A stretch of 63,537 nt of DNA, filler included, from 15 parts of 15 records of this genome joined end to end with filler, not necessarily neighbours in it, one strand, 5' to 3'; positions 8,486-59,654 are shown, counted from the first letter of the whole stretch. Numbers and translations are program-made. The notes: generated by a model not told the origin, from the sequence alone.

Positions 8486-10366
8486 GGGCTCGTGAGGGCG
8501 GCCGACCTTGCGAGGAAGCAGTACAGTCCTCTCAAGGAAATGCAACCAGAGCTGCGCAAGATGACCGACCAAATAGTGGTCGAGCTGGCGCACTACGCCA
8601 AATATATGGTGCCCCGGCCGGCTGTGCCAGGTGCTGAGTGCGTGTGGGGCAGTTGGCTGTTTATGGGCAACTGCTCTACTTGTATTCCGAGTTGATGCCA
8701 CCGATTGGCCAGTGCTGCTGTGGGATCTGCGGCTGCATGAAACTGTGCTGCGCATGCGGCCCGCTCGACCGCACCCACGGCGACAACTGCTGTGGTACCG
8801 GCAGTGAGGCATTCAGCAAGCGCTGCCTGCAAGACGGAGCTGACGTAGAGCTCGTGTATGCAGATTTTGAGTGAGAGATGCCACGGCCGCGGGGCTGAGC
8901 GAACCGGCAGGAACGATGTATGCTGCTGCCCGTATGCGGTGCTGGCGGACCACGACAAGGCATCCGGCACCGGCTGCGGTTGCTGAGCCGAGCGCAGGGC
9001 GCGCTTGTGGTCACGATTCGAGGCACGATCTCGCTGCAGGACTGCCTAACAGACGGGCTGGCCAAATCAGTGCCGTTTAAATTCCCGTCCCAGCCGGAGG
9101 AGCACGCGCCGGTGTATGTGCACCAGGTGCTCGCACGGTGCTGCGCGGCTGCTGAGTGCTGATGGTGCAGGGATTTCTGGAGGCTGCGCACCATATTCGA
9201 ACTCAGTTAGAACACAGTCAGCTGATCGAGGAACTCCTGCTGGGGCACACCCCCAAGCTCTCCAGCGCGGACAAGGCATGGCTCAAGGCGAACGCCCCGG
9301 GGCTGCACGAGCTAGTATCCAAGAAGCGACGCTTTCTGTCAAAGCTCGCGACTAGGACCTCAGGCTACACGCTGACAGTTGTGGGTCACTCGCTCGGCTC
9401 TGGGGTGGCCTCCGTTCTCACGATGCTCCTGTCGGGCCCAAAGTACCCGGATCTGCACTGTTTCGCGTACTCGTGCCCAGGTGAGCCTCAATCATAGTGC
9501 TGCTCTGTCGACTGACTAGCCCGACAGGTGCTGTGTTCTCTATCGATTTCGCGAAGAGCGAAGACGTGGCGCGGCAGATTACGTCGGTGGTGCTAGGCGA
9601 CGATCTTGTGTCCCGGACCTCGCTCAAGACCCTGGAACGACTGAGGAACCAGCTCGTGCATGCGCTGTCGGAGAGCAATCAGCGGAAGATAGATGTGATC
9701 GAGACAGCGATCGCAGCACATCAGGATCCGGACTACCAGCAGCGGCTAACTGACCCGCTCGGGGACATGACTGACGAGATGGGCGTCTCGATGCAGCCGG
9801 AGATGGCGCCGGCTGGCCAGATCCTGCAGCTTGCACGTCATTACGACGGGATTGAGGAGGAGATCAAAGGCAAGCGCGAGGCTTTGCTGATCACTTCGTG
9901 CAGGGCAATGTGCTGCGGTGAGCCCGAGCGCGCGCAGGGCTGAGTCGCGCATAGGTGTGGACCAACAAACGTTTGCGGAAGGGTTTATACCGACGTGGAT
10001 CCCTGCAGAACAGCTGCTCGAGATCAAAGTGTCACCAACGATGGCACTCGATCACTTCCCTGATCGGATATTTGTGGCTCTGGATAGCCTTGCACAAGAC
10101 ATCCTGCAGAAGACGCCGTCAGTGGTATTTCGAGATGACTAGTGCCGCTGAAGTGGTGCTGACCTAGGGGTTTGCAGATGCAGCACTATGATAGGACTAC
10201 TGCTTATGAAGAGACAAACCCTAACTTGCCTGCAGGGACACCTTTCATGAGCCAACTGCCATCTAGAGACCAGTCCGTTATTTCCGAAGGCGAGTTTTTA
10301 GAAGATGCACGCACAGAACCTGAAGTTGAAGTCGAGGACATATTAACAATAATCAGTCAGCGGTGA
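8486..10366 (+). CDS. Class 3 lipase, diacylglycerol-lipase-like (5' truncated)
   Basis: PYAVLADHDK-GALVVTIRGT, VVGHSLGSGVAS nucleophile elbow, DDLVSR, MALDHFP; many ~40-nt introns. The 3' end is 10142 or, via a 53-nt intron, 10366. Confidence 0.85.
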
Positions 10367-10717
10367 TCACGAGTACAGTACATGTACTCGTACTAGTCTT
10401 GAAGCCGGCGCTAAATAATTCTCACTACAATCATGATAAAACATACAGTACATTAACTAGCTACTAGTTAGCGTTCGAGGTTACGATTTAGCTACGATTA
10501 CATGTAATAATTACGCGTTATGACGTGTGTGGACGTGACCAATAATTATTATTGTGCACACGTTGTGCACAAGATTCACAAGACTCAATTATGTCCAACG
10601 ACGCGATTCATCTTTAATCCGGCACACATATTATGCACACCAACAATCCTGTCAATGAATGGCTGTGGGCGCAAGCTATGAATAGTAAGTGCCAAATGAA
10701 CTGCAAGGCTTTGCCGC

Positions 10718-11669
10718 TCATAAGCCAGCCAAGTCCAGACTGGTCAATGTGCACAGATTCAGTGGGTTGGCTGCGGGTACTGAGGCCTGTTGCCGTATGC
10801 ACCCGGTGGCGGCGGCGCCTGCCCTGGCCGAGGCTGCGGGGCATGTCCAGGGCCTGCAAACCGAGCAGTTAGCCGAGCATTCGGGCGAGTAGAAGGGACC
10901 TTGGGCCATGCCCATCTGCCCTTGCATCGGATACTGCATTTGCTGTCCGTACATCTGCTGAGGGAGCATCTGGGGCGGGTATTGCATCATTGCGGGATTG
11001 TACCCCGGCTGCCCGTTGTACACCTGCATCCGAGTGAGTCCCATTACACTGCCTGCACAAGCCACCGGGCCGGTCTGCGGATTGAACCCAGCCTGCGGAT
11101 TCGGCGGAAACCCCTGCGGCCCTGAGGCGAACCCCTGTGGCCGCCATCCCGGGTCTGTCATGTTGCTCGGTGTAAGGCCGGACTTGACCTGCTCGGTGAG
11201 AGAATTCGAGTAGAGGTCACGAGTGCCCATCTGTGGGGTGTAGTCTGGCTCAGCGGCCTGTGGCGGCATCGGGACTGCTCCTGGCATTGTCGGAACAAAT
11301 CCTGGCTGCGCTCCGTACCCCTGCTGCTGTCCCATGTACATCTGCTGCGCTGCATACCCCTGCGGCCGAGCCTGCTGCGGCTGCGGTGGTGGCGGGACAG
11401 CCGGTGCGGGTGCAGCCGGCTTGAAGCTGGGCACAAAGCTTGTTGCGTTCACATTCAATTTAAACTCTTTCGCAAAAGGGTTCAGACCAGGCTTCTTGCC
11501 ACCAGCCAGTGAAGGCACGTCGCCGGCATTGGACGGCTTCGGGTCCAGGCTGGGTGAGCTGGAGGGCGAGCCCTTCTTGCCGCTCGTGGCAGCAAAGTCC
11601 TTCAGCCGCCGCGTGATCTGGCCACATATCATAACCCCAGGCCCCGGGCAAGCACCTCGTCCCGGCCTT
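10718..11669 (-). CDS. PAM2-motif, Pro/Gln-rich protein (Ataxin-2/Pbp1-like C-terminus), 5' truncated
   Basis: Tandem PAM2-like motifs LNPFAKEFK-LNVNATSFVP followed by a P/Q/M/Y-rich low-complexity region. Confidence 0.7.
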
Positions 11670-12677: not shown

Positions 12678-14827
12678 TCAGCTCTCTTTGATTTTGAAGT
12701 GTTGCTTGCACAGTTCCCAGGTCTCAGTAAATGCATTGAGGGACTCGAAATACGATTGTGGCACAAACTCACGCGGATCTTTGTCTATCATTTCAAAATG
12801 GCTAAGCTGCGCGACCGTCAGGCGATTCGAGTTTTCGTACATGACCTCCAGAGCTGGTGCTCCTGGCAAAGAACCATGAAGAGTGCTAAACCGAGTGAAC
12901 GTCTCTTTGATCCCTTGGAAACACATTGAGTTCCCTTCAGCAAACTCGTAGCCGGACCCATCTAGGAACATGATCTTGTAGGATGCGTCAATGCCTGGCT
13001 CATTGCGGTAGACCACCTCAATCCCAGCTGCCACCAACTTGTCGTGCAGCACTTGCAAAGCAGGCGCTCTCTGGAACAAGTGTGCCGCGCCGTCCTCTTC
13101 GTCCACCAAAGCCATTGGCGTGAACTCCTCCGAGCCCGGGCGCTGCCTCATCACCGGGCCCACCTTGACCACACAACGGGGCCGCTCTTCTGCGTGCCCG
13201 ACAAACTTAAGCGCTGTCCAAAGTGGCGACGGATGCTTGAACATGATGGCTTGCTCTGCAGACGCTAAATCTTGGCTATTGAACTCGACGGCCTTGCCTG
13301 CCGAAGGCTCCTCTTTGAGCGGAGAGCCACCGTCGATCGCGAGGGCGGCAGTTGGGAATGAGGGGATGTCGGGTACAATCAGCTCATACTCCTCTTGGAG
13401 CAGCATGTTGTCATCGAGCGAGAATGCGTCGACCGCAGATGGGCCATACTCCTGGTAGGAGCTCCTAGTGATGCCGGTTACTGACGAGAGCGCCATGAAG
13501 ATCGAGGATCCAATCCACTCTTGCGCCTGCCTGTCCTGCCCGGCTGCTATCTTGATATCAAGCCCTGGCGGTGCATTTGAGCGCATCTGTTGAATCGACC
13601 TCTCGACGAACCCATGCGCAGTGGTTGCACTTCCGAATAGGCACAGGTTGCGGCAGAGCTCTCGCAGGACCTGTGCTTCACCCATCTGGCCACGATGCTG
13701 GTACTTGAGCGCCACGCAATTCGACATTTGCACCCTCCAGTCGCCACAGACGTATTCACCGACGTGGTACGCCGGGACCTGCCCCACGCACGATGCCACG
13801 AAATCCGTCACGCCACCAGTGGCGCAGATCCTCTGCCACGCCATGTCTGGTCGGAGCGAGCCGGCTATGCTCGGGTCGAACAACAGCTCGTAGCCCTGCC
13901 AGGCCGCCGGCCCGACTTCGACCAGCGACCCGTCCGGCAGCTCCACGTCCTTGTGCTGCCTCGAGTCCAAGTAGAGGCTCCGCTTGTCTGTGTACTCGGG
14001 CACTGTGCACAGCTCAGCCTTCATCCGATCGAGCTCGAAACGGTCCAACTGGGCCAACTCCGGGTGCCGGGCGAGCAGGAAGCCGTCCACGTCGGCCGCA
14101 CCGAGCGACATCTGCTGGGCCTGCCCTACACTCAGCCAGGCAGCTCCAAAGGCGCTACTCACACAACCCTTGAAGTGCTTGCACAGGGGGATGCCGTTGA
14201 ATATCGGGAGGACTTGGGTGAGACCTTGCCCGACACAGACCCCCACCCCAGTGGTCCGCCCGCTAGCGTACAGCCCCGCCATCGGCTGAGATTCGAAACG
14301 CACTTGTCCCACCTGCACGCGAGGCTCATCGGCGCTCCCGGTGCGCCGGACCTCAAACGTCTCGAACAGCAGCTCAGCCATGTTGGCGAGCTCAGATTTC
14401 TGACCGCGGAAGTTCTCCATGGCCGTGACGATGCCCACCTGCGGTCGGGCTGAAAAGGCCGCCTGAGTGGCCGGGCTGCCGGGATGTGCTGGCCGTAACC
14501 GTTGAACCCGGAGCGGACAAAGCCGTAGCTCCACACCTTCTCCAGCGCCTCCCAGTCGGTCACTGCACCGCGCTCCACTGGCCACTCGGGCAGCAATGGG
14601 GCCGCCCCCATGTCGGCGCTGTCGTTCTGCAGCTGCTGCATCAGCAGCGGGCGGCGGGGCCGGGCACCTTGGGAAAGAAGCCCATTGGGTAATCTGCGCC
14701 GGTCACCCTGCCTCCCAGCCATCAGCTGACCATCGGCGCCCATGCTGCACCCGTATTTGATCCCATCGTCCTGGGTGTCTAGCACTACGCCCAGCTCGCT
14801 GTTGCCGAGCTTCTCCATCACTGCCAT
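12678..14827 (-). CDS. Divergent actin-related protein with a ~240-aa C-terminal extension
   Basis: WPVERGAVTDWEALEKVW, MAELLFETFEV, GLYASGRTTG, LTQVLPIFNG, MKAELC, ELPDG, WIGSSI and EYGPSAV actin-fold motifs; several in-frame mini-introns. Confidence 0.85.
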
Positions 14828-18812: not shown

Positions 18813-21443
18813 TCATTTCTTGCCCCCCAGAATTGCCTCCAACGCCATCAATGACGCTTCTTGTTCATTCCGCATCGTGACCTCCAATACATTCATACGA
18901 TCTGTCATTTGCACGACTTGCACCTCAAGCGCTTCGTAGTCTTGTGCCCCCTTTGATTCCAAAGCTCTAAGCGAGGCCTGGTGCGCGGCCTTCAGTTCCT
19001 GCTCTAGTGCTCGAATTCTATTGTTGCTCTGGCCTGAGGTATGGCCTGTGGCCTCTAGCTTGTCCAGCTGGTGCTGGACCTGAACTATCTGCTCAGACAG
19101 TGTGGAGTGGAGCTGATTGAGCTGAGCTTGCTGTCGAGATTCTTCTTCTACTCGGGCCTGGATGGCTTCCTCCTGGGCCCACATGCTTTCCTGCCTCACC
19201 CTCTCCACAGCTTGCATCACCTCAGTGGACGAGCCAGTGCCTGTGCTGTGCTGTTCAAGTGTTGCCACTCGAGCTTCAAGCTGCTGCAACTGCCGCTGCA
19301 TTGCTGACCGCATGGCTGCTTGCTCAGCTTCCATCTGAGCTGTCAGCCTCGCTTCGAGCGCCTGAAGCTGTTGTTCCAGTTGGCCCTGTACTGCTTCAGT
19401 GATGCCGTCAACTAACTCAGTTGGGCGCGCCAACTCAGTCTTGAGCATCTCAAACCGCTGCTCCACCATCTGCAGCAACTTGTGCTCAAGCTGACTCTGG
19501 TCTGCTGGGATCGCACCCATCTCGTGAACCACAGACTCCAAAGCTACCTCAGCATCATCTGCCTTGGAGTTTGCAGTCGCCACAGCGGCTGACAATTGAT
19601 CGAGTTTGGCAGCTTGCTCCTTGAGCTCATGATTGAGCCGCTTGACTTCTCTGGTTTCAACGTCCTGTACTGGAGAATCAGGCAGGCGAGATGCTAGCGA
19701 ATTCGGATGGAAGTCGTCTCTTTGATCCACAGTACAGGGAGCTCTCACGACCGTGCTTGATATTGAGGCGGCCATTCCAACAGGAGCCCGATCTAGCGAG
19801 CAGTCGTGGTTGCTCTGTGAAGGTGCTGCAGAGCTGTGCGAGCGGGTTGCCTGCTGCGAATTAAGTTGCTGCTGCATTCCCTTGAGACGCTGATTCATCG
19901 CAAGCACAACTGCATCCACCGAGGGCTGTGGTCCAGCTCCGACCAACTGGTCGCCTGGCTGTTTGCTTGAGACACCAGCTATAAATTTGTTGATCCTGAG
20001 GGTGTTGGCAAACGATTCTGCTATCTCCGGATCCATTACATTGTTATCACCAAGAAAGATTTCAGTGATCGTGGTGTTGGATCGTAATGCATTTGCTATC
20101 TCCAGTGCAGAACTCCGGTCCCCATCTTCAATTTCAAGAATCAGTTCACGGATCGAGGCATTCGTTCGCACGGCGTCAGCAATTGCAGCAGCCCCACTCC
20201 GGCCCATGACTGCCCCCTGTAGATCCACGGTTCTAAGGCTGGCGTTCTGCTTCCAGCTTCCCGCAACCACTGCAACTCCTTCCGGACCAATATCGTTGCT
20301 CCCTAGGTACAGAGCTTGAAGGCTCGAGTTCCGGATCAGCGCTTGTCCAATTGATACAGCGCCACGGTCACCAATGCTATTGGAGCGCAGATTGAGCTTG
20401 ATCAGCGTCTGAGAGGCTTCGAGTCCAGCTGCCAGCGATTCACAGCCTCGAGTTCCGATAGAGTTGCCCCCAAGGTCCAGCTCTTGTAAGCTCTGGTTGA
20501 AGCGTAGCGCATCGCCAATGGCAGAAGCTCCAGGATCCCCAATGCCATTGAACCTGAAGTTGATCACGCGCAGAGTACGATTTCTCTGCACCACCAGCAA
20601 CAGATTCACATCAGTTGCCGACCCGACTCACCTCTGCAGAGCGCGCAAATGCAGCGGCTGCATCGTCAGCAGCAAGGTTACGTTGGAGGTCCAGGACTTC
20701 CAGGCTGAACACAGCTTAGCCCAGCCAGTACATGTGCACACCAGCTGTTACTCACAAGAGCATCAGCCACAGCGGTCACTCCAGCATCCCCAATTCTGTT
20801 CTCAGCGAGATCAACCTGTTTGAGGGTAGCTGCCACACCGATCGTCTCACTGCGTCTCGAGCATGGGGTCACCATTTTGCTCGATTAGTCGGGCCACGTG
20901 CAACGCTCCCTCGTCATGCAGCGCATTCCGCGCTGCAGTCAGCCAATGATCAAACTCAGGAGGCAGCTGGTCGCACCCAAACTTAGGTTTGTGAGAGTCC
21001 TGTTCAGCGCCAAGCCAGACTCGAGCTCCTGAGCCCCCCCCAGCGAGTCAGTGTCCGGCGTCACAGCTGTATGGCCAGTCACCTTCACCAGCATTGTTCC
21101 AAGGTTGCACTGCGAAAGGTCCAGCGAGCTGAGCCCTGGGTTGTCCCGAAGGCTGCAGCACCAGCAGTCAGCTCCCGCTTGGCGCACTGCCAGGCCTGTT
21201 CATCAGGCAGACGAGCTCATGTTGGCCCAGAGGCTTGCCCCGTTCTCGCAGATCGCACGTCTGCGACCGATGACCAGCAGCCAGCTCGCCCAGCACCTGC
21301 CCAGAGGCGTCGGAGATCGCCATCACCCACCTGCGCCCGCCGGATCGAACTCAGGACCGGTCGGCGGGTCACTCGAGGATCGGCTCCACCCCAAGTAGCG
21401 TGCAGTTGTTGACGTACGCCGCCACCGCGTCCCCCGGCTGCAT
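18813..21443 (-). CDS. RI-like leucine-rich-repeat protein with C-terminal coiled coil
   Basis: Repeated N.SL..L.L..N.IG..GA..IA.AL units followed by a long heptad-rich Q/E region; 5' exons split by mini-introns. Confidence 0.85.
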
Positions 21444-21979: not shown

Positions 21980-23709
21980 CTATGGCGCGTCCAGTTGCAC
22001 GGGATCGAATCTGTTAGGGTGCGGAGCAGTAGAACTATCGCCTGGGATAGTGTGATATTCCTCTATGCATCCTATTACGTCATCGACTATCCTCTCCACA
22101 GCCTGCTGGAAAGCAGGTGACACCGAGTCGGGGATCTTCAGCTTTGGACGGAGGTTCACCTTGGTGTCAAGAAATGACAGGGCTCGCAAGGGCTGGCACA
22201 CCTCGAGCAAGAACGGTTCCGGTAGCTCGTTAGCTGGCTCCGTGATTCCGTTAGGATGGGCTAGCATCAGATCGATACCAAGCAGCTGGAAGCCCGGGCG
22301 CGTCAGCTGACCTGAGCAAGGTTCATTGGGACTATTTGCGACGGGTTAGGGGCACCAGAGGCTAGGTGAGAGGCGAGAGGGGCACAGACTTGCCGCTTCA
22401 CTGCTGGATAGAAGTGCGTATCAAGACTCCAGCTCGAAGGCATCAGCCTTTCCAGATCTTGGAGAGATTGCAGGTTAGTGCGTGCATCGTACCCATCGTC
22501 GTTCTTGTTGATAGCATTGTTAGTCAGGTGGGCCCTTCGATTCTCCTGGATCTGATCGGCTCAGCCGTCGTCTAGCTAGCACCTCGCTGAGGTCATCCAC
22601 ATTGTATTCTGCTGTCGAGAACCTGCACACGCCATCCCGGTGCAGCCAAGCTTGGAGCGGCCCGTTTCCGTACGCCACTAGCAGGAAGAGTCTGCAGCAC
22701 CACTCAATCCCGCCTCTTGCGCTATGAAATGACCGAATATCAAACTTTTTGGACCGCAGGCCTGGGAGCATTGAAGCGTGGTATTCTGAAACAAAAGGGG
22801 CGAGTCGGTACAGCTGTATGATAGAGTCCGCACCAGGATCGTTTGCGTCGGCACCAGCCGCTTCGATCAGCCAAGGTCGATCCAAGTACTCTTGAATCAC
22901 ATAGCGCTGGCGGCTGGGCTCTGCGAGGAATCTGCTCAGGCTTTGATATCCATCAAACATCTTGATCCCAGCGGCTTTGTTCCCGTCCGACGGTTTGACG
23001 ATCCACGTGGCTCTGGCCGCAGCACCGCCCGGTCGGCCAGCCCCGACCATCTCAGTGTCCAGCCAGTCCAGAATTTGTGGCCCTGCATCGCCAGCTGGCA
23101 GCACTTGTGGCTCAGACTCGCCGAGGCCGCAGAGCAGTGGCCCAGAATCGCCGGGCTCGCGGACCACAGTGAATGGCAGCCATGGCCGCTGGCCCATCGC
23201 TCTGCAGCTCCCTTCAGGCCGTGCGGGTGGCCAACAGGCACCGGGCCAGGCGAGCTTTGTCCCACAAGTTGCGGTCTTCGATATTCGGGCTGATGAACCA
23301 GCCTGAGCTCCCTAACCGAGCCCATGGCGCACCGCAGGTTGGTCACCGCCGACTGCCGCACCCGCACCTCGGTCCGGAACTTGCCTGCGCCCCGCCGCTC
23401 CGAGCAGCCCGCACCAGCCCGCACCACCCACCGACACCGTCACCACGTCGTCAATTCCAGGGCTCTCAGCCTGCAGCTTTTGGGTCTTCCAGCCCGGCAG
23501 CCAGCAGACGTCCGCCTCGACGGCGTCGATCACCGCCTTGGGCCCGTCATCGTCCTGCATCACCTCCGCCGCGCCCTCCACCTGCCAGCGAATCAGCAGC
23601 AGCACCGGCAAATACTTGCCCGGGTGTAGCCACGCCGTTCGAACCCGGCAGCGCTGGTCGAGGAGTGGGACTCCGGGCAAAAGAACCGAGGCCGCCCGGC
23701 AGCTTCCAT
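21980..23709 (-). CDS. Tubulin-tyrosine ligase (TTL/TTLL) family ATP-grasp enzyme
   Basis: WIVKP..G....GI, YVIQEYLDRPWLI, KKFDIR, GVCRFS..Y, FQLLGIDLML, PFLLEV-N. Confidence 0.88.
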
Positions 23710-25776: not shown

Positions 25777-28406
25777 TCAATCGAAAGAGTCGCTTACATG
25801 CAACGGCTCTGTCTTGCTATCACATGTCGACCTATACGTATCGGTGGACCGAGCGCGTTTCGTCCAACAATGGCATGCAATCAAGATGCCCAGCATCAGC
25901 GCCGCCATCGCCACGAACCCAGCCCCGGCCGCCACTAGCCATGAGCACAATTTGCTCTGGCAGTGGATCCACGAGATCCACTGGTAATGCCAGAAAAGCA
26001 ATGTCCCGCCGGCACACAACACTGCAGCGAGGCACAGCGTAGCCGCCACAGCTCCGGCCGAGATGGCCTGCTCCTCCTCCTCTGCCCGAGTCAGCCCTCG
26101 CAGCGCCCGGATCCGTCTAAGCGCCGATGGCGGACCCGACATAGGACTGGCTATCATGTCAGATCTGCAGCAGTACAGGTCAGCCAGCAGTCAGCGCGCG
26201 AGAGGGCCCGCACATCACTGTGTCGACAGTGTGGCCCGACGAGGAAGAGCCACCGTCAGGGCACTGCAGCGCTTGGCTCGGTCCACCTGGCGAGGCGGCG
26301 CCCGCAATGGCCGCCCTCCAGTCTGAGAGCGAAGTGCGGGGCTGGCCGGCAAACGACCCGTATGCCAGGAACTCACAGAGCTCGTGCTGACTGCTGGCTG
26401 CCTCGAAAAATTGGGCAAACGTGACCACTTTGCTTCCTTGGGCTGGTTGTAGCATATTCACCTGTGGTCGGCAGCTCAGCATACGCCAGCAAGCTAGTGG
26501 CTGCCTTGGCCAGCAGCGACTCACGAACGTCGGCTCGATCCGGACTCACAAACTCGGCCTCGTCCGAGAGGATAGACAGGAACGAGGCGTCCGGGTGCTG
26601 CCCTAGGCTCTCGGCGTTGTCCGCAGAGCCCTCCGAGCGAGGCGACGCGTCAGGCGTGCCGAAGCACTCGGTCATGGAGCCGAGCCCATCTGCTATCGCC
26701 TGTTCTGGGGGCTCAGACGGCCGGCAGCGCCGGATTTGACCTCTAGGTCGCGCTGCGTGAGCACGCCAATCCCTTGAGAGTCGTACACGTCAAAGCACAG
26801 CTGGAGCCGCTCCTCTACGGAGCCGTCGCAAAGCACAGAGATCAAGCAGCAAAGCGCCCTGCTCAAGCTGGCGCCAGCCGAGCAAGCAGAGCACCTGAAG
26901 TCGATCATCCCACGGCTCTCTTTGTCCACTGCTGTGAACAGCGCCTCTGCATCTGCTGCCCCAATCCCAAGCGTGCTGTGCGCTGCTGTGAGCTCGCTGC
27001 GCGCCCACGATCAGCTGAGCGTCGAGCGGACGCACCGGAACAGTGCGCGAGACATTAGGCAGGACGGCTGGCCATCCTGGCGGGCGCATGCCTGCAGGCA
27101 CTGTCAGGTTGCGCTAGGCGAGCTTGACCTTCTTGAACAATCGGCGGAGCTGCATCAAGGTCTCAGTCGAGTAGTGGGTGTGCTTGGCCAGCAGATCCAG
27201 CTGGGCTGCATCCCTCGCCCAGCTGCCCCGCACCATCAGCCCCCGGCCCAGGCCGGCCACCGACCGTCGGCTCATCCTGAGCCGGCTGGCCTCCCGAAGC
27301 TTCTCGAGCTGCAGAGGCTGACCTGTGACCTGTCGGGGCTCAGCTGGCCAGATCTGCAACGGCACCAGCTCGATCGCCTGGTGCAAGTCGCCCCCCCGGA
27401 CCAACCGGCACTGCTGGACCATCCAGGCGTACACCGGTAGCTCGTCCTGGTGAACATGGTCAGCCAGGTCAGTACGTCAACGGGCACCCATGTATCTGGA
27501 GGCTCGTTCTCGGCGTGCTGCTCGAGCACAGACAGGATGGCCAGCATCCCCACCACCAGGCAGTCCGACCCGGCCCCGCCCAGCTGGTCGCTCCGGCACA
27601 TGAAATCCCACAACACCTGCGCTCCGCGTCGCCCCGCCCGTGCCCTCACCATCACCTGGGTCGCGCCGAATTCAAGGCTGTCCACGAACAGAGGCAGCAT
27701 CAACTGCTGGCAGAGCAGTTCCACCGCGTGCCGCAGCTCCTCGGGCTCGCCCCGGCCGGCCAGCCCGGGCACCATCTGCGGCAGCAGCCAGTCCACTACC
27801 CTGCAGTCTGCGTGGAACCCGTTGATTGCCGCGGGCGGCCTGCCCGGCCGGCTCGGCCCGGTCAGCCGAGCCAGCGGGCGCCGTGAGTAGAAGTCGGCCG
27901 GCAGCACTCGCTCTACTATGCAGCAGAGCAGCCAGAACGCCTCTTCCTCTGACTCTAGCAGTGTGAACCCAAAAAGAGCCACCTGCCGCCCGCGCTGGCC
28001 GGCCGGCCGGCCCACGCCCCCGCCTTGTGCAACCCGAGCGCGTACGAGTGCCCGCGCCGGACGAACGCGCGGAGCAGCCTGTTGAGCCCGGCCTGCAGCA
28101 TCGGGTCCTGCCGGTCGGTGTTGCGGATGACGCGCGAGAGGCTCGGCTGGTCCCCGGGCTCTGGGCCGGGCGGCTGGGGGGTGCACCTGGGACAGGTGGT
28201 CGGCGTGCAGCCGCGCCACGTCGTCCGAGAGCTCCCGCACGAACTGGCGCTGGGCGCTGGTGAAGCCGGCCTCGCCTGGACCAGCTCCGGGCGCCAGACG
28301 ACCCGGGCGCACCCAGGTGGCAGTACTCGGCGTAGCTGACGGGCGAGTGCCGGTGCAGCTCGTGCGCCCCGAGGGCCTCAGCCCAGCTGCGCACTCGGCC
28401 GCCCAT
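25777..28406 (-). CDS. Rab-GAP TBC-domain protein with EF-hands and two C-terminal transmembrane helices
   Basis: LSDDVARL, EEEAFWLL..IVE..LP.DFYS and VLWD (TBC); SVLCDGSVEERLQLCFDVYDSQGIGVL (EF-hand). A 49-nt GT-AG intron (~26165-26213) joins in frame to the hydrophobic ORF 25777-26157. Confidence 0.75.
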
Positions 28407-33125: not shown

Positions 33126-33836
<711 letters not shown>

Positions 33837-34796: not shown

Positions 34797-35788
34797 TCAC
34801 TCTTGCATCGACATGGTCATCGAGTCGCGAGCACTCATTAGGCCTTGCGGTCCCTTGAGCAGCTTCTTGACCGTGGCCTGGCGCGACTCCTCTTCGATCG
34901 CGTCAGTCTTGCGCTCCATTTCCTGATCCATTTTCCGCTGATAGTCGCTGTCTTGCATTCGATCTCCAGTCGCCTTCATGAGGCAGCAGCAAGGGATCCA
35001 AGAGAGGCACAGCGTGCACAGCGAGCAGCCAACGCCAAAGTACTGCAACCCGGTGAGCCAGCCCCGGCCGACCGCGCACCATGGCTGTTTTGGCGCCGCA
35101 CACGCCACCAGCAATGACTGTATCCAGCAGAGCATACATGGTCTCATCCTTGATCTTCTCGGCAGCAAAGATTCTTTCCTCTTTGAGCACCGCAGAGAAG
35201 CACACAAACTCCTGCAACCGGCCCAGTCAGCCCCCCGGCGCCCCCGAGGAGCGCACGTAGGGCCCGATCGACTTGCCGTTGTCAAGATCCCAACGCTTGA
35301 AGGCTTTCTCGCACTCCCGGTCTGCAGGCCGGATCTCAACGGCTGGCTGTAGCGCTCGGGCGCACCGGACATCTTGAGCTCGGATCTGTAGTGCTCGCGC
35401 ATCTCGGCGTACTCCAGGAAGCCGTTGTTGTTGGTGTCCAGCGCTTTGTAAGTCCTCATGTCCTGCGGCATCCTCTCGGCGGGACCCAGCCAGGACGGAC
35501 GCATACCTCGTCGTACCAATCTCCAAAGATCTCGTTCCCGCCTTGCTGCACCCGTCGTATGGTGGCTGCCCGGGATCGCAGGGTGCTCATGAAGGCCGGG
35601 TCTCCGTTCCCTGCCCTGTGCTGCTCGTCGGCCATCTCCTCGAGCTTGCGGGCCATCCGTTCATAGTCCTCGTACCGGTCGTTGTGCGCCTTGCGGTACA
35701 GACTCAGACACTTGGACTTGTCGATGTCCCATTGTTCACCCCCACCGACAGCTCCTGGTGGTAGCAGCGGCACTCCCTCACCCGACAT
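34797..35788 (-). CDS. EF-hand protein with Cys-rich hydrophobic C-terminal segment
   Basis: YKALDTNNNGFLEYAEM and FKRWDLDNGK EF-hands; CSLCTLCLSWIPCCCL; multiple mini-introns. Confidence 0.7.
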
Positions 35789-35849
35789 CCCCCAACAACT
35801 GCCTTTCGGTTACAGTGCCGTTGACACAGCTCTGCGGGAGGGGAGAGGT

Positions 35850-40011: not shown

Positions 40012-41743
40012 CTAGTCTTCAAACAACAGATCCGGCCTTTGCTCAGCCAGCTGGAGCACCGCCTCGCCCAAGTAGCTGTTAGCCATCGCAAACCAAAACC
40101 TCGTGTACTCGGAGGCGTTCTGGTACCAGTAAGACTCGTGCATCAGCCCAGTCCCGCCACTCGACTCCACAAGCGCCCGCAGGATCGCACGCCGCTCCTG
40201 GTCCGCACTTGCCCCGGAGCCGGCCACAGTCAGCAGCCGGATGCTCAGTGATAGCGGCCAAATCCTGCCAAGTCCCGGATTCCCCGAGGCGTCCTCCGAG
40301 CCTATCCCGCCGAGCACCGGACAGGCGGCGGGGTGGTCGCATCCGTAAAAGTACGGGTTGGTCCTGTTGCTCAGCAAGAGCCTTCGAGTGCTCTGATACA
40401 CGGCGTGCTCGGCGGGGAGGTACCCCAGGAAGGGCAAGCTGAGCAGCGAGGGCGGGTTGGCGTCGTCCCCAAAGAAAAAGTTGCCAAACCCGTCCACCTC
40501 CATCGCGAACACCTCCGCCCCCGAGCTGTGCCGCACCACCCCCCACTGCGAGATCGCCCTGTCCACCTGGTCCGCCAGCCGCTCCGCCGCCGCTGCGAGA
40601 TCCGGCGCGAGTCCCAGCTGCCCGAGCAGCTTGGCGAGCCCTCGCAGCTCGACAACCAGGAACGCGTTCCCCGGGATGTGGTACGGCAGCCGGGGCGAGT
40701 CGTCGCTGGGCAGGAACGAGGTCCGGACCAGCCCGGTGTACCGGTGGTTGCGTCCTATCCCGTGGGCCGAGGTGTCTTTGGGCTCGTCGCTCAGAGTCTG
40801 GAATGTATAGTTTGTCTCGGAATAGTTGCGCGGCCCCAGCGGCGCCTGCATCACTCGATAAGCCACCGCCACTAATACTGTACTGACCTGCATGGTCCGG
40901 TAGGTCGTCACCACCGTGCGAGCAGCCTCCAGCCACTCCGCATCAAACGGCCGCCTGTCCTCAGTTGCCTGCCCCAGCCATCCCCTCCCCCCCCGCCGGG
41001 CTGGGCGCCTCCCAGTACTGGCGCGATAGCTTTAAGAACGAGCTTAGCGAGTCCATTTCCCACCTGGATCACACAGTCTCAGCAGAGTCTCAACACACAC
41101 AGTGCTTGCGCTGGTGGATCCCAACTCGCATCCCGTTCACCCGAGTGCCGTTGGCGGTCAGCTTGGTCGTCTTGTCCTTGGTCCACGCCCCCGGGTTGCA
41201 CTCCAGCGCCGCCTGCCCCCCGTCGCCCCCGGCGCCCCCCCCCCGCACAACCTGCTTAGTCTCGAAATAATCAAAAGCGTTCGCGTAAGGGTCGAGCAGC
41301 ACGCTGCCGGCGTGCCGCTTGATCAGCCCCCGGAGCAGCCGGCCCATGCCCTCAGGCTCCTGCTTGGCGTATCGGATGTACGGCAGCACCTGGTTTTGGG
41401 AGTCGCGCAGGTACAGGCTCGGCTGATCCCCGGTGGAGATGAAGCTTCGCGGATCCTTGGGGCCGGGCGCCTGCCAGACGGTGGTGTCCAGCGTGTTGGG
41501 CAGGCAGTTCCACAGCAGCGTGCTCAGCTCCGGCAGGCGCCACCGGCGGGCCCTCAGCGCGGCCAGCGAGGCCTCCAGCGCAGGCGAGACGAAGCTCCTG
41601 TTGGCCGGGGCCGGACGGGCGTCTGGGAGCGGGCGGGTCGGCGGGACGGCGGGCGGGCCCTGGTGCCCGTCCTTGCAGTCGAGCTTGCCGGCGGCCGCCC
41701 CCAGAGCAGCGCAGAGCAGCGCGAGGCGAACAGCTGGTACCAT
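40012..41743 (-). CDS. Secreted glycoside hydrolase family 125 (exo-alpha-mannosidase-like)
   Basis: Signal peptide; RP....R.F.S, NCLPNTLDTTV, TGD....LRDS, DPYANAF, TGL....F.PSDD, EVDGFG.....DDANPPSLLSLP.LGY, GTGLMHES, FAMANS. Confidence 0.92.
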
Positions 41744-46552: not shown

Positions 46553-47446
46553 ATGGGAGCCTGCTGCTCGTCGGACGACACCTCGGCGCGGCCCGGCCGG
46601 CCGGGCGGGCGACGGCTGGGCAGGTGAGCGAGGGGATCGTGCCCCGTCCGCTCCGGTTTGACCAGTACGCCCGCGAGGCCCTCAACTCGGGCGGTGGCCC
46701 AGGCCCGCCCGCCCGGCCAGCGGCGGCCAGAGTGGGCCCCGGCCTCCGAGCGGACCCTGCGGAACGTGCTCGTACTCCCGGGAGCGCTGCGCCCGGACGG
46801 CTCGCCCGACCCCAACCAGTGGGTCCTCTCCTGCCGGTGGGTTGTCCGTTGGGATCGGCGAGCGGCGGCAGGTTCCACCCGTCGGACCCGGCCCGGATAG
46901 TGAGCTCCACCCACGACTCCCGGATCGTCGAGTGGAGGCTAACCGACGGATCCCACCGGCCGGTGATGGCCCACCACCCGACAGGCGCGATCTTCAGCTG
47001 CGACTTTCACCCGAACGGCCAGCTGCTCGCCTCAGGCGGCGGGTGCCCGGTAGCTCCAGGGCCGGGCCGAGCGGCCGGCACAGCGGGGCGCATGCCCGGG
47101 GAGGGGACGGTGTGGTGCGGATCACGGAGCTCGGCACGCGGCTTGAGCTCAAGAAGCTGGGCGGCCGGGCGCCCGGCGCCATCGCCCAGTCCGGACACAC
47201 GGACGCTGTCCGGTGCGCCTGCCGGCCGACCGGTGGCTGCAAGGAGCGGGCAGCTACCTTCGGTTCTCGCCTTGCGGCCGGTGGCTGGGCTCGGCTAGCC
47301 TGGACTCGACGGTCAAACTGTGGGATATGGAGCTGCCGGCGGAGACCGCGCAAGTGGCTTCTATGAGGCACCAGCACGCCACCGGGCGCAAGGCCAACGT
47401 CCGGTGCCCCCTTGGGCTGTGCCCCCCCCCCCCCCCCCCCCCCCCC
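46553..47446 (+). CDS. WD40-repeat protein with MGACC dual-acylation N-terminus (3' truncated)
   Basis: IFSCDFHPNGQLLASGG and FSPCGRWLGSASLDSTVKLWD repeats. Confidence 0.8.
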
Positions 47447-47701
47447 NNNNNNNNNNNNNNNNNNNNNNNNNNNNNNNNNNNNNNNNNNNNTTAATTAATT
47501 AANNNNNNNNNNNNNNNNNNNNNNNNNNNNNNNNNNNNNNNNNNNNAGAGACTAGAGGAACTCAGTCCCTACTACACTACCACCGCTGCCATGGACCTCT
47601 AGCGGCACTGAACTGCCACTCAATTCGCCATCAATTCGCTACCACTTCATTGGCATGATTGTGGTTGCGATAAAGAATACAATTATGACGTCTAACGAAG
47701 A

Positions 47702-50444
47702 CTACAAATGTGACGACTCCTCGCGTTGTGGTCTTGAAGGTCTTAAGATTGTCGAGAGTACCCCATGATCAGAGGGAAACGCAAAAGTTGGGAAGAACTT
47801 GCCTGCACACAGAACATACACGAAGTGAGTCCATGTGCACCAGCCTTAAATCTGCTACCCTCTTCATAAAGATGGTTGCCAGTGTTATCCCTGAATGTCC
47901 TGATTTGCACTCTCAAGTCACAGTGCTTGCAAAACCATGGCCACTACAGTGTTAACAGGCAGGGGACTGACTCTGCACATGCGAACTGGGAGTCATAGAA
48001 GATGATGTAATCCTTTAGGTTGACATCCGCATTTTTGTGAAACTTACCTGTCACAAATAAAATGAGTGCAATATACCAGAATAGCCCATGAAGATATCTC
48101 ATCAGGCATTGATACTCACGAATAACACCATCAGAGTCCTTTTGTGGTAGTGGGCATGCCTGCAGTCAAAGTGAAGGACATCAGATCATAATACGCACCT
48201 TATTGAGCTGAGGCTGCATGAACGTGCGAGCATTGCATGTGGTGTACCGAGTCGGGTCTGGGGTTTGACCCCAGCAGCTATTCATACCTGCAACTCTCTC
48301 GTTGGTTTACGAGGCTGGGCGGTGAGACCTTTTGAGGCAAAGTTTGCTCCAAATTCCACAACCCCGCACTTCTCGCCTTTATCTGCCCCTGCAAATGCAC
48401 AATCGGCAGTCGGTGGCACGGACCTCCAGGATACTCGTAAGTATTGGCATCCAACCCAAATATTAGTTTTGAGCTTGGATAGGAGGCCTGGATTGTCTTG
48501 TGCAGCGCCGTGAGAACAGGGATCTGAGAGCACGGCTGTGGGAGCGTCTCCACGGCCAGGTGGGGTACCGACGCGAGTCCATTTGTATCACCATGAAACG
48601 ACGCTAAGATGTACGAATGGCCTCCGACTGACATGATAGCAAGGTAAGGGACCACAAAATCAACCAGAGTACCATCCTCTGCGACAATGGTTAGCAAATC
48701 GCCATTTGCCAGCGGGCTCCTTGCCCCAGCTGGAAGGGCGCTCTGCCGCCAGCCTTAATCTGAAACCAGGTCGAGATCATACCTTTAGCTCAGCCTCTAC
48801 ATGTGGTGTGACCTGCGCAAAATCAGTGGACAAGGCCAATTAGAAGAACACACCTCAGTTCCCGCCCCTGATGGGAAGCGCTCCTTGTGCAAAAGGATAA
48901 CTGAGTTCTGGTCGCGCTTTGTGTCAAGCTTTGCCGGCAGAGCGCTGCATACGTGCAATTACTCGACCGCAGGCCAGCCATTGAGGCTCACATGTGATAT
49001 CTTGAAGACAGCGGGCTCCTTTGCAGGTGGTTAATGAAGTCGCTGCTCACCTGACAGCATGTTCTCTATTGGCATGCACAGGGCAAAGACCTCCTGCAAC
49101 AGGATCAGATCATCTCGACTGTACGCTTTATCCAGAATTTCTATTGTGCGTGGAACTTTCTGTAGATTGAGATTGTGGCACATCTCCTGCGTGGGTCACT
49201 CGGCATGTGGAGAGGGCCAGATAGCACACCTGCTTCATAGGCTGCCACTCACCAGGCGCCAGTGTGTTCATCAAGTGCACTAGGATAGCATCAAATATCC
49301 CCTGCCAGGTCTTAAGAGCTACAGGCACTAAGCCCATGCCTGACACATTATTTGAAGTGGCAACGAAATTGCCTCTTCCTCTACAGCCCCCCCGCAGGCG
49401 GTCAGATCGAGCGGCCACCGGTCTGCCCACCAGGCGAAATAGCAGGATACTTTGAGTGCAGAATCGGCGAGAGGATGGAATACACATTTGAAGGCTCCTG
49501 CCAACAGATCTGCTGTATGAGCCGCAGCTCGGGACCTTGTCTCCATCCAGCACGAGGGCTTGGTCGAAGAAGAAATCCATCCATTTATCAAACCAAATCT
49601 CCTGAAGCAGCAGCCGGTTCCTGAATCAGATTCAGCTCGCGGGATGCCTGTGATGACAGGTCGCCTTCAAAGCAATTGATCACTGTCGGCCGGTACGCCA
49701 GCCCACCGCCTGCGGCCCCACAGTGGCCCACAGGTCGACGCTGTGACTGCCTGAGAGGGCGATTGTATTTGTTATTCTATCAGGCATTGAGGCCAGCCTC
49801 TTCTTACCTACCGGCCGGAGCCCTCACGCCAACTATCCAGCAATGTGCACACCGAGCATTGGGTCACGCAGAAAGCCCTGGATGATGCTCCGCTGCCTGA
49901 AATTGGCGTTCCAGAGAGTGTCAACCTGGCTCAGTGCTGGTCTAGCTTGGGCCGGCCAGCACCTGGTCCAGCGATTCCCAGCCTACCTCGCCCATCCGCT
50001 TCATCAGCATATCGAACATCTTGGGGGTGAACACGCGCTCCACCTGCTCCCACCAATCGCCCCGGGTTCTCCGATCGGGGGAGCCGGCAGATCTCGATCC
50101 CCGGGGCTCTGCATCACTTGCTCAAGGTCAACCTGGCTCCAGCTTACAGGCCGCGGCTCCGGCGGGGACACCATCAGGCGCTGGTACACTGGGCTCTCGT
50201 CGTAGGTGATCCAATACTCAAATGGGTTGTTGTTAATGGCGGCAATGTTCCATGTGGAGATCTTGAGCTCGCGTCCCGCTGGGAGCCAGCCAGATTTCGG
50301 CTGGGAGACGGCGGTGGGCAACATATTGTACACAGCCACGACACAAAAGACACAGCTAGCGCAGCACCCAGCTAAGAGGACGGGTCTACTGGCACCCAGA
50401 TCGGTCGAGAAGCTCCGCGCCAGCTGCTGGACTGACCGCAGCAT
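47702..50444 (-). CDS. Endonuclease/exonuclease/phosphatase (EEP) superfamily protein with N-terminal hydrophobic anchor
   Basis: KISTWNIAAINNNPFEYW, D.ILLQE, SFHGDTNGL, LIFGLDAN and terminal FPSDHG, distributed over many small exons. Confidence 0.75.
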
Positions 50445-54241: not shown

Positions 54242-54971
54242 GCTCTGTATAGATCGAAAGGTTCTTGAGCTGGGCGACTGCACGGCGGCGAAGTGCCGTT
54301 AGTGCTATTCCTGGAGCAGTGATCTCCCGAGTGCTTCAGTTTGGGCGCCGGTGAACGAGCAGCACACGGTAGTCGCGTGCCATGCGGCCTCCGGTATTCT
54401 TCTTCGGTGTTGCCTGCTGCTTCGTGTATGGTGGGATGACATTCCATATCCAGCGCTCCGGTGCCGCCCCCCTCCGGCAGCCGAGCTGAGCGGCTGCCAG
54501 AACTGGCTGGGCGCAAGCTGCTCGATGTCACCCTGCCGTATTGGACCGCCGACCAGGCCCGGGAACTGCTCCGGTGCGGCCGCCGGCCCGCTGCTCGGCT
54601 GAGCCCTCTGCAGAGAGCTCGGCGAATCTGGGCGGGCAGACTATCTCAGGCTGATCCTGAAGCCGCTCGGGGACAACCTTCTGCCGCTTTGCTACGGGCC
54701 GCTTTTCGCCCTCGTGCTTCCCACCAAACTAGCACCGCTGCCGATCCTGGCCGCGGTGGCCGACCTCGTCGAAAATCTGATGCTCACCCGGCTGATTGCT
54801 GGGTTTGACCCCATAGCTGGTGGTTGGAAGCCGGAGGCTCAGACACCACTGGTCGTAGGCCCGTGGGCCACAGCGTTCAAATGGTTTTTCCTCATCGCAA
54901 GTCTGGGCTCTCTCTTTGCGCGCAGTACATTCCGTACGAAGCCGGAACCTGTCGCTGTCAAGGAAGATTAA
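54242..54971 (+). CDS. Hypothetical small multi-pass membrane protein (5' end unclear)
   Basis: Exons give LLDVTLPYW...LGESGRADY...DNLLPLCY...AAVADLVEN...ATAFKWFFL with hydrophobic helices. Confidence 0.55.
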
Positions 54972-55193
54972 GCGCTACACGGGTACTCGTACGCAGTAAG
55001 AATGCCTTGGAATGGGTTGAACAATCTGATTCAAACAATCATTGGAAGCTTTTATCCGAAGCATCATTGGAGCGAATGACAGTTTACGATATTCAAAATT
55101 ATAGTAGTATAGTGCAGGGCCTAAGAGTAAGTGAACCAATTTAATCGTTGTTATTCTCAAAAGATGACCTCCAAAAACACATGTGAAGCAGCT

Positions 55194-57306: not shown

Positions 57307-57599
57307 GGGCTACATGCAGCTGCCCAGTAGGGACTGGCTCAGCTGCCGTTGCGCAGATCTCACGACCGGCCGTGCGTTGCCGGCTCAATCCTGCTGGCGT
57401 CGTGAGCGGCTACCAACCCAAGCCCCCNNNNNNNNNNNNNNNNNNNNNNNNNNNNNNNNNNNNNNNNNNNNTTAATTAATTAANNNNNNNNNNNNNNNNN
57501 NNNNNNNNNNNNNNNNNNNNNNNNNNNGCCTCGTACCCCCCCCCGGAACTTGGATAAATAGATGTCAACACAAGGCTAGGGACAACTAACGGTCACGCG

Positions 57600-59654
57600 A
57601 TGAGCGTGCCCGCCCGGGTGGAGGGGCTGGCCGGGCTGGCCGGGCGGGCGCGGCTGTCGATCGAGCCGCACCCGGAGCACACGCCACCAGTGGCGCTGCT
57701 GGTGCAGGCGGGCGGGCGCCGGCGGGCGCTCCGAATCCAGGACGTGCACCGAATCCAGGACGGTGGTGCCAGCGTGGGCCAGGCCATTCTCTGGCTGGAG
57801 GCCGGTCCGGTCCGACTGACCGCGGGACTGGAGCACGCGACCGGCCTGGTCCGACTCTGCGCCCGGCTGCGCGACCTGCAGCGGCACCCGTCCAAGGCCA
57901 GGATGCTTGGGCGGGCCCTCCCGCCGCTGGCTAGCCTGCCCGAGCCTAGCCCGGCGCCCAGGGTGGAGCCTATCCCGCCCGAGAGCTTCTATGGGGCCCC
58001 GGCGGAGGGCCGTACGACGACTGTGCCGAGCAGCTGGCGCCAGTTCTTCCGTCAGGCGGAGGCTTTCGCTTGGGTGGACAGGGCTGGGCGAGACGAACGG
58101 GTTTTCGCGATGGAGACCGGGGCCGGCGGGAAGCGGGTGTACATTGTGGCCAGCTATGAGGCCATGTGGCGACACATCAAGGCGGCCCGGGACGTACGGG
58201 GGCATGGGAGCTTCTATGAGGTCATCCGGGAGGGCTGCGCATGCCAGCTCTACCTGGATCTCGAGTTTTCCCGGCTAAGCAACCCGACTCTGGACGGGCC
58301 CGCGCTCACCCGGGAGGCTCCAGCCGGTCAAAATGCCCGGCCAACCCGGGAGCAGGTGGTGGACGCGGTACTCGGGCGGCTGGCGGAGGCCTACAAGCTT
58401 GAGTGTGGATGGCCGGATGTAAGGATGGTAATCCGCCAGCCACTGGCCCGGTTGAGCCAGAGCAGCTCGACTCGACCACAGACAAGAAGTTCTCGAGGCA
58501 TGTGATCATCCGGCGCGCCACCTTTCACGTATGTGCGCCGCACTGGCTGCCCTCCCAAGCCTCCGGGCAGAGTAACGCAGATGTTGGAGGGTTCATCGGC
58601 CAGCTGGTGGCCCAGAACCAGCAGCGCTGGGAAGTCTTGCCGGAACCTGGTGCGCCTACTCGGGCCCTCTAAGCAACCTGGGGGCAGGTCGGGCCATGTC
58701 GAACCCTGTGAGCTTTGTGGACTGCTCAGTCTATTCACGTAACCGCTGCTTCCGGCTGGTCGGCTCGCGCAAGTTTGGGAAGCAAGCTGTGCTCACACCG
58801 GTCAACAGTACCGACGCTGAGCTGGCCACTGCCCGCCAGTTCTGGATGGACTCACTTGTGTGCAATGTCGAGTACTCGTCAGGGCTCAAGCTGCTCTCTT
58901 ACGGCCGAACAGTGGACGAGCCCGTGTCGAGTGATGGACGCAGGCTTCGGAAGAGCCAGCCATCGAGCCAGTTGGCGGGATCGATCTTTCCAGAATTGGA
59001 CGCGTACATGCAGCAGGTGGTGGCTAGCCACTGGGGGGCGGGGGGCGGGTGCGACATAGCAAGGCTGCGTGAAAAACGGGGGGCAGCTGGCTGCGCAAGT
59101 GGACCTGGCTGCCGGTCAGCAAGACACTCGTGTACCAGGCAGTCGAAGGGTGGGTTGGCGCTGATTGGTGGAGCAGGTGGGTGGGAACCGGTGGTGCAAG
59201 CGTGTTGGGCGGGAGCATCGGAGCAACCATATTAGCCTGGTGGTTCAGCTGCAGGAGTGGGCATTTCACCAGGTAAGACCCGGCTGCCTGACGCAATGGG
59301 TAAGTGTTGGATTGGAAGGCTTGTCAGGATCCCGAGTGCCGGGGCTACAAGTCGCCACTGCAACCCTTGCCAGAGTCGCTGCGAATCTCAGTTTACTCGT
59401 TGCTCGGGCTGGATTTGGAACCAGACCCAGAGCTGCTTGCAATCATGGAGTCAGTCGATGAAGCAACACTCAGACCGGCCAGTGGCATGGAACCCGATGC
59501 AGAGTTGCTACAGATCATGGCTGATATCCATGAGGAGAGCTCCCTACTTAATAAGACCTCTACGGATTTATCACGAGGCCATGAGGTAGATGAATCTAGC
59601 GGCATCAATGGCATCGTACAGCCGGCAAAACGACCAAGACTTGATAATGGATAG
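57600..59654 (+). CDS. PRIMPOL: PrimPol (AEP primase-polymerase with UL52-like Zn finger)
   Basis: FYEVIREG..C.LYLDLEF (motif I DxE), KFSRH (motif II), FVD.SVYSRNRCFRL (motif III), RWC..VGREH.SN...C.DPEC zinc finger. Confidence 0.93.

Follow-up and report, generated by a model that had tools for sequence, protein, structure and literature searches.

The window analysed here is a stretch of 63,537 nucleotides of genomic DNA from an uncultured marine protist with compact, intron-rich genes, and these genes are interrupted by miniature introns with a median length of 41 nt, about one in eight of which begins with GC. With a probability of roughly 0.7, we consider these to be genuine U2-type introns in which length confines the donor to a narrow interval and exon-side recognition (U1/U5) selects it within that interval, and we infer that their removal is carried out by an ordinary U2-type spliceosome through intron definition. 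The window consists of 15 contigs of 3-9 kb each, joined by linkers carrying stops in all six frames (N44-12 nt-N44; at 4101-4200 and 13 further places), so that gene order across linkers is meaningless. Its base composition, N excluded, is 58.9% GC.

Introns were read from three-frame displays, with the help of a rough self-trained gene finder and of spliced alignments. Among 152 introns listed, 148 in 25 genes were counted, after removal of three possible GC introns (36283-36314, 41623-41658 and 57911-57961) and one whose donor was ambiguous between GC and GT (57073-57111/57114); anatomy statistics were computed on 147 introns and the decoy test on 146. Five of the 148 were confirmed by RNA, 34 belong to genes for which homolog profiles were aligned, a frame change or a stop demands another 90, and 19 keep the frame and contain no stop. 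The set leaves out the regions near 400-4100, 10200-11669, 43700-45600 and 54242-55150. The GC share of 18-21% given by the gene finder was discarded, as the finder over-called introns and skipped exons: calls such as those at 7663-7698, 23013-23047 and 58801-58839 were dropped because the sequence was judged coding, and its GC donors at 29646 and 33633 were replaced by upstream GT donors.

Intron lengths ranged from 35 to 72 nt, and 140 of the 148 fell between 36 and 50 nt, in agreement with the sizes reported in an initial annotation of this DNA. GC donors were found in 19 of the 148 introns (12.8%, confidence interval (CI) 7.9-19.3%) and in 8 of the 39 fixed by RNA or homology. A strict count, restricted to the eight homology-fixed GC donors and three without any GT alternative, still gave 11/148 (7.4%, CI 3.8-12.9%; p=4e-6 against 1.3%). 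The initial annotation had set the frequency of GC-AG introns against a usual value of about 1%, and the introns of the window indeed lie far above it, at 13% and at least 7% on the strict count. GC introns occurred in 10 of the 15 contigs and, at one or more per gene, in 12 of the 25 curated genes, including 4 of the 22 introns of the PF26695 gene; 11 of them were absent from the initial annotation.

We aligned the genomic DNA to homolog profiles under three regimes, in which introns could start with GT only, with GT or GC, or with any donor before AG. The profiles were built from 53 PF26695 proteins (of 120 listed), 45 lipases (of 150 listed), 16 Siw14 proteins and 3 bacterial GH125 proteins, and the closest single homologs (P0030, P0287/P0137) were used too. 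When any donor was allowed, the alignment landed exactly on GC in seven of the eight homology-tested cases: at 8960, 33444, 40969-41008, 41064-41105, 49302-49339 and 49602-49647, and, with P0030, at 49710-49750; in the eighth, 50044-50084, the intron was shifted by 3 nt with the same length. In variable loops the same regime chose arbitrary dinucleotides (9/24 introns with the PF26695 profile, 3/22 with the close homolog), so that only tight regions are informative, and wherever homology was tight the donor-blind alignments gave GT or GC. Losses on forbidding nearby GC donors extended from 2.5-8 bits in the GH125 introns to 22.8 bits at 50044 and the still larger value at 8960 (Table 1), and splicing restricted to GT cost 91 bits in the PF26695 gene and 15 to 46 bits in three other genes tested.

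The remaining sites were searched for frame-compatible GT-AG introns of 30-90 nt. None was found at 23582, 27983 or 37569, where retention breaks the frame, and the sole GT alternative to 37986-38022 requires a GAG acceptor, which was used by 0 of 147 introns. All eight segments proposed in the initial annotation start with GC and end with AG, and seven of them hold as introns, with the acceptor of 50044-50084 perhaps 3 nt earlier; the eighth, 58317-58355, is in frame without a stop and thus unproven.

Spliced RNA was sought in 4 of 14 metatranscriptome runs on positions 34240-38556, one of the 15 contigs. Five joints were recovered, of 36, 37, 44, 44 and 45 nt, all GT-AG and all agreeing with the curated introns, so that removal of short GT-AG introns was observed in transcripts. 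Both GC candidates of this contig, 37569 and 37986, had zero RNA cover and are uninformative either way.

The donors approximate (c/a)AG/GTGcgc, the slash marking the exon-intron border. Among GT donors, G stood at -1 in 84%, G at +3 in 63%, C at +4 in 47%, A at +4 in 26% and G at +5 in 46%; GTGCGC and GTGCCC were the commonest donors, G at -1 occurred in 84-94% of donors overall, and positions +4 to +6 carried 0.1-0.3 bits each. The poor GTRAG consensus that had been noted is borne out, with G[TC]RAG in 15 of 129 GT and 1 of 19 GC donors. U12-type donors have the invariant motif RTATCCTT; in the window, ATCC at +3 to +6 was not seen beyond single cases, and donor logos were degenerate. Under a curation that presupposed GY-AG ends, acceptors were CAG or TAG in 146 of 147 introns and AAG in one (CAG 138/147, GCAG 88/147), and no polypyrimidine tract was present (45% pyrimidines at -18 to -4). 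The branch-like motif seen earlier as CTGAC, CTGAG or CTAAC proved strongly enriched: strict CTRA(C/G) was present in 53 of 147 introns, compared with a mean of 8.2 and a maximum of 18 in 500 shuffles, and a relaxed motif in 97 against 36. The A of the strict motif is separated from the 3' end by 14.9 +/- 3.0 nt (mostly 12-17) and from the 5' end by 27.5 +/- 3.4 nt (minimum 20). In 48 of 52 introns the first AG found 6 nt or more past the motif serves as the acceptor, and by position and sequence this CTRAY-like motif is a putative branch point. GC and GT introns were alike in length, acceptor and branch motif. Introns became less GC-rich along genes (rho -0.36), and their length rose with AT content (rho -0.38), as in the PF26695 gene, whose 3' end carries introns of 72, 72 and 56 nt.

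GC-AG donors usually compensate the C at +2 by a strong match to AG/GCAAG. The GC donors of the window had been described as mostly lacking such a consensus, and this holds for the intron side; the exon side carries it, and the compensation had been missed because the intron side alone was looked at. An exonic AG preceded 13 of 19 GC against 49 of 129 GT donors (p=0.023), A stood at +3 in 12/19 against 25/129 (p=0.0002), and a G opened the next exon in 18/19 against 70/129 (p=0.0007; all Fisher tests, uncorrected). The eight homology-fixed GC introns behaved in the same way (exon AG 6/8, +3A 6/8, next-exon G 8/8). GC donors are thus compensated by exon AG, +3A and the downstream G; at +4 (A in 1/19) and +5 (match in 6/19) no compensation was seen. 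Phase 0 was found in 15 of 19 GC and 62 of 129 GT introns, and a bias of GC donors towards the 5' part of genes was not significant among these introns (p=0.08). Among GT donors, G at +5 was present in 15 of the 20 that lack G at -1 and in 44 of the 109 that have it (p=0.006); an anticorrelation between AG and GTRAG was not seen (p=1.0). The relaxed U1/U6 recognition suggested in the initial annotation fits the weak +3 to +6 positions; the -1G/+5G compensation persists, and therefore U1/U6-type pairing apparently is still used.

In the decoy test the acceptor was kept fixed and all GT and GC candidates upstream were ranked by leave-one-out scoring. At 33-57 nt from the acceptor there were 4.5 candidates per intron, and 36 of the 146 true donors would be found by chance. 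Length alone recovered 81, the exon bases 109, positions +3 to +6 82, the whole donor 129, and donor plus length 133. The whole-donor score, like the lack of in-frame G/GT decoys near GC donors, is inflated by placement by eye, which is biased towards good-looking donors. The 37 held-out introns fixed by RNA or homology matter for this reason, and the result agrees there (length 19, exon bases 28, +3 to +6 21, whole donor 34, donor plus length 33). Over 20-120 nt, donor sequence recovered 88, length 81 and their combination 133. No GC intron had a G/GT at 30-50 nt from its acceptor, and several GC donors at 38-41 nt were used despite a G/GT at 19-29 or 51-78 nt. Length therefore sets an interval, and sequence, mainly exonic, picks the donor inside it. 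Since the lengths of the two arms flanking the branch motif are uncorrelated (rho 0.02; SD 3.4 and 3.0 nt), length acts as an interval and not as a ruler. The earlier proposal that donors are selected mainly by distance is upheld insofar as length is needed over the wider range, and fails within 33-57 nt, where length alone falls well short of the whole donor.

Under the favoured explanation, the intron would be defined as a single unit, its 3' end being set by the branch point together with the next AG downstream. The donor would have to fall roughly 20-35 nt 5' of the branch A, and within these limits the G-Y with the best exon-side context (-2A and -1G, pairing with U1 and with U5 loop 1) would win, positions +3 to +6 (GTGCGC-like) making a small but non-zero contribution. 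C at +2 would be tolerated when exon AG, +3A and the G opening the next exon compensate for it. By analogy with published cases, the T-to-C changes would probably be supplied by the GC-rich introns (about 66%), a step weakly supported here.

Several observations weigh against this explanation. The annotation is limited to genes with homologs or clear frames, and for 109 of the 148 introns the position was judged by eye on frame and stop codons, a procedure that prefers good-looking donors. None of the GC junctions is RNA-confirmed, and all five joints are GT, an outcome with a probability of about 0.5 at a 13% rate. The Fisher tests carry no multiple-testing correction. The window, the only DNA searched, gave 0 Rfam matches, so no small nuclear RNA (snRNA) was seen, and splicing factors likewise were not seen. 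Intron bodies were equally GC-rich in GC and GT introns (68% and 66%, p=0.67), GC donors were split 6/6/6 over the terciles of intron GC, and only flanking GC was slightly higher at GC donors (63 vs 60%, p=0.04). Local GC content was rejected as the cause of GC donors, as intron-body GC does not differ.

A stricter role for distance, in which spacing from the branch point or acceptor mainly sets the donor and U1/U6 recognition is largely relaxed, is already disfavoured and has a low probability. The narrow lengths (126 of 147 introns at 36-45 nt) would suit it, as would the failure of sequence alone over 20-120 nt, the low information at +4 to +6 and the GC donors at 38-41 nt that beat a G/GT at 51-61 nt in three genes; the superiority of donor sequence over length, also in the held-out introns, the independent arms, the near-constant -1G and the persisting -1G/+5G seesaw speak against it. 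It is equally improbable that the spliceosome itself has diverged, with a changed U1 5' end or U6 ACAGA box (or METTL16/SNRNP27K status), reading GUGCGC-like donors and accepting C at +2. The common GTGCGC and GTGCCC donors and the prevalence of C over A at +4, with A there in only one GC donor, point in that direction, and in other species changes at +4 go with METTL16/SNRNP27K status (PMC11732430). C and G at +4 to +6, however, are near the base composition of these introns (about 66% GC). Enrichment of -2A, -1G, +3R and +5G, moreover, is what canonical U1/U5/U6 pairing generally produces. In a bolder form that we hold to be doubtful, the spliceosome would be re-tuned so that the 5' splice site is an exon-side AG/G placed 20-35 nt from the branch point, through an altered U1 5' end or U6 ACAGA or through loss of U6 m6A/SNRNP27K, leaving the +2 pyrimidine and +4 to +6 almost free; if true, this would be a natural, nearly pure 'U5-class' splicing on 41-nt introns.

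It is very unlikely that the GC introns are transposon-like copies of an introner family, for which Micromonas pusilla offers a precedent with 79% of its GC donors in D-IE1 introns (PMC4815162). Their prevalence in phase 0 and the 2-4 nt common to both boundaries in 17 of 18 would fit such an origin; the next exon, however, usually opens with GT (11/19) and not with GC as a duplicated target site would, and the top intron-intron alignment scores (16, then 14) stand against 13-14.5 for shuffled introns. No intron family with shared sequence was detected among the approximately 145 window introns compared, a comparison that old or rare families could escape. Just as remote is the explanation that the GC calls are artefacts in a fragmented environmental assembly, produced by assembly indels or by mistaking retained segments or longer GT introns for GC introns. 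The contigs are short and joined, no RNA joint falls on a GC site, 2 of the 19 are in frame without a stop and several have GT alternatives, but donor-blind alignments met GC exactly in most tested cases, and GC introns share length, acceptor and branch motif with GT introns.

Table 1. GC-AG introns of the window and GT-AG introns joined in RNA. New, absent from the initial annotation; loss, alignment bits lost with nearby GC donors forbidden.
Position	Strand	Intron	Gene or part	New	Evidence
8960..8997	+	GC-AG, 38 nt, phase 0	diacylglycerol-lipase-like (Lipase_3)		any-donor alignment; loss 24.6
14439..14479	-	GC-AG, 41 nt	actin-related	new	frame change needed; one 50-nt GT alternative, other acceptor
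21153..21195	-	GC-AG, 43 nt	LRR	new	frame change needed; one 52-nt GT alternative
23582..23619	-	GC-AG, 38 nt, donor GCAAGT	TTL family, first intron		retention breaks ORF; no GT-AG alternative
26462..26504	-	GC-AG, 43 nt	TBC/EF-hand	new	frame change needed
27840..27881	-	probable GC-AG, 42 nt, in frame without stop	TBC	new	CTGAC motif; no GT alternative
27983..28023	-	GC-AG, 41 nt	TBC		retention breaks ORF; no GT-AG alternative
33444..33484	+	GC-AG, 41 nt	Siw14-type phosphatase		any-donor alignment; loss 17.0; homologs NK-EPF across joint
35043..35079	-	GT-AG, 37 nt	EF-hand/TM		RNA joint in 4/4 runs
35212..35256	-	GT-AG, 45 nt			RNA joint in 4/4 runs
35322..35365	-	GT-AG, 44 nt			RNA joint in 2/4 runs
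35463..35506	-	GT-AG, 44 nt			RNA joint in 3/4 runs
36742..36777	+	GT-AG, 36 nt	FYVE-DnaJ-FYVE-PX, DnaJ part		RNA joint in 1/4 runs, one contig, depth 2
37569..37609	+	GC-AG, 41 nt	PX domain		retention breaks ORF; no GT alternative
37986..38022	+	GC-AG, 37 nt	PX gene, coiled-coil part		retention breaks ORF; sole alternative with GAG acceptor
40969..41008	-	GC-AG, 40 nt	GH125	new	any-donor alignment (3 bacterial GH125); modest loss, 6-8
41064..41105	-	GC-AG, 42 nt, splits RK-WEMD motif	GH125	new	any-donor alignment; loss 2.5-7
46586..46623	+	GC-AG, 38 nt	WD40, first intron	new	frame change needed; sole alternative 59 nt, GAG acceptor
49302..49339	-	GC-AG, 38 nt	PF26695 (EEP-like)	new	any-donor alignment, family profile and P0030; loss 22
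49602..49647	-	GC-AG, 46 nt	PF26695	new	any-donor alignment; loss 10-12
49710..49750	-	GC-AG, 41 nt	PF26695	new	P0030 gap-free only with GC donor, 5 bits
50044..50084	-	GC-AG, 41 nt	PF26695		loss 11-23
58317..58355	+	probable GC-AG, 39 nt, in frame without stop	PrimPol		no GT alternative; retention possible
59139..59176	+	probable GC-AG, 38 nt	PrimPol, zinc-finger part	new	frame change needed

Some of the sites in Table 1 call for comment. All seven GT alternatives to 26462..26504 fall outside 35-50 nt or use non-YAG acceptors. The segment 27840..27881 is in frame, so its retention is compatible with the open reading frame (ORF), and the exon after 27983..28023 has a weak RabGAP-TBC match (E 0.075). 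The exons beside 37569..37609 abut at positions 32 and 33 of the PX profile (the last matched residue, 56, is at position 30, and two positions were extrapolated). The small loss at 41064..41105 is due to an alternative GT intron of 33 nt that keeps the frame. The distant-family profile favoured an in-frame GT located 3 nt inside 49710..49750. At 50044..50084 P0030 kept the GC donor and preferred an acceptor 3 nt earlier. The alignment to human PrimPol from the PDB ends just upstream of 58317..58355, and PDB searches with the downstream exons gave nothing useful. At 59139..59176 there are also in-frame GT introns of 35 and 47 nt to choose from, and GC was preferred for the spacing expected in the family.

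Eukaryotic Pfam domains found in the window were formin, lipase 3, Memo, actin-related, Snf7, LRR, TTL, bromodomain/BET and inositol phosphatase, together with Siw14-type phosphatase, FYVE, DnaJ, PX, GH125, GH5, GH28, ankyrin, TPR and EF-hand. The PrimPol gene was recognised through its PDB match to human PrimPol; this ortholog (57600-59660, +) has an N-terminal extension of about 120 amino acids and may contain the 51-nt GC intron at 57911-57961. The PF26695 (EEP-like) gene (47600-50324, -) packs its 22 introns within about 2.7 kb. Its product is 66% identical to P0030, which marks a sampled relative; P0021 seems to continue into an intron located at the same first position. P0030 and P0137 are the closest homologs found for the window, those bearing names being distant (diatoms, Aplanochytrium, fungi). 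In the region 28560-38550, 5-17% of the words were present in 14 marine metatranscriptome runs from 5 studies, and a metagenome scan with the Siw14 exon returned 2 distant loci (47-50%). The viral scan and homolog search with the PrimPol exon found nothing, and the Atlas search returned generic bromodomain clusters only.

Among other genes, 35850-38556 (+) is probably a single FYVE-FYVE-DnaJ-FYVE-PX-coiled coil gene truncated by the contig end, its FYVE-to-PX connection depending on the predicted intron 37202-37244. An intron-free ORF at 16576-18372 (-) encodes an unusual fusion of an HSL-like hydrolase (HSL_N, Abhydrolase_3) with a C-terminal Janus/Ocnus domain. The gene at 4551-8256 (-) encodes a formin FH2 domain (Pfam) preceded by a PTEN phosphatase/C2-like module recognised by eye, an architecture that we take to be that of plant class II formins. 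GH5 (cellulase family), GH5_C and BNR (sialidase-like) domains are combined in one ORF at 43748-46464 (-), the GH125 and GH28 genes being located elsewhere in the window. A 5' gene part at 1-402 (-), which may be that of a P2X-receptor-like gene to judge from a motif, contains three GT introns. Two gene pairs are arranged head to head, TBC/BET at 28406-28579 and WD40-inositol phosphatase/Siw14 at 33002-33126, with start codons about 120-170 bp apart in both.

Frequent GC donors are a known habit of some GC-rich plankton, and no new splicing machine is demonstrated here. GC-AG introns average 1.3% over 61 species, and reach 39.6% in Aureococcus anophagefferens, 22.2% in Micromonas pusilla and 7.7% in Chlorella NC64A (PMC3033335). 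Seven species of the same table with genomes of 54-60% GC have 1.0-2.4% GC-AG, and its shortest mean intron is 56 nt (PMC3033335), so that the window lies above the GC trend and below the size range. The genomes of Aureococcus, Micromonas pusilla, Chlorella and Emiliania huxleyi are 65-70% GC, and the three of them in the table have mean introns above 100 nt (PMC3033335; PMC4028052). Aureococcus and Chlorella NC64A likewise exceed the average by far, but at 67-70% genomic GC and with GC-AG introns averaging 127-175 nt (PMC3033335), compared with about 41 nt at 59% GC here. Micromonas pusilla is likewise a marine pico-eukaryote with many GC donors: in strain CCMP1545 they make up 22-26% overall, 9.7% in regular and 43.5% in introner introns (PMC4815162; PMC3033335), the value for regular introns being close to our 13%. 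It differs in its mean intron (170-190 nt against 42 nt), in genomic GC (66% against 59% in the window) and in that repetitive introner elements, of which none was detected in the window introns, account for most of its GC donors. In Emiliania huxleyi (65% GC) 56-65% of donors are GC, as verified by RT-PCR, with an unchanged AG acceptor and mispredictions by GT-only gene finders, and its GC donors were ascribed to high GC content (PMC4028052); the habit is shared, although the share of about 13% here is lower and derived from sequence alone. The literature proposes a tie to GC content; it is weak in our data, and a high share of GC donors at only 59% GC weakens genomic GC as a sufficient explanation.

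In the literature search, outside of which subscription papers remained, neither a GC-donor habit paired with 41-nt non-repetitive introns at 59% GC nor a description of telonemid or picozoan nuclear introns was found, the accessible text of PMC12388492 being silent on telonemid introns. With regard to donor classes, 5' splice sites have been divided into U5-type AG//GUNNN and U6-type NN//GURAG, with -1G/+5G compensation attributed to U5 versus U6 pairing, in a paper whose accessible part does not treat GC donors (PMC11732430). The donors of the window resemble the U5-type class in their exon-side emphasis and their -1G/+5G seesaw, whereas the U6-type class is rare (GTRAG in about 1 in 9), +4 is mostly C and the AG/GTRAG anticorrelation is missing. 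Gene finders limited to GT donors would disrupt many genes in this genome, whose introns offer a clean data set on how length and exon-side pairing divide the work in intron definition. Compared with the known systems, they represent a high-GC-donor case at 59% GC, with far shorter introns and no repeat family detected.

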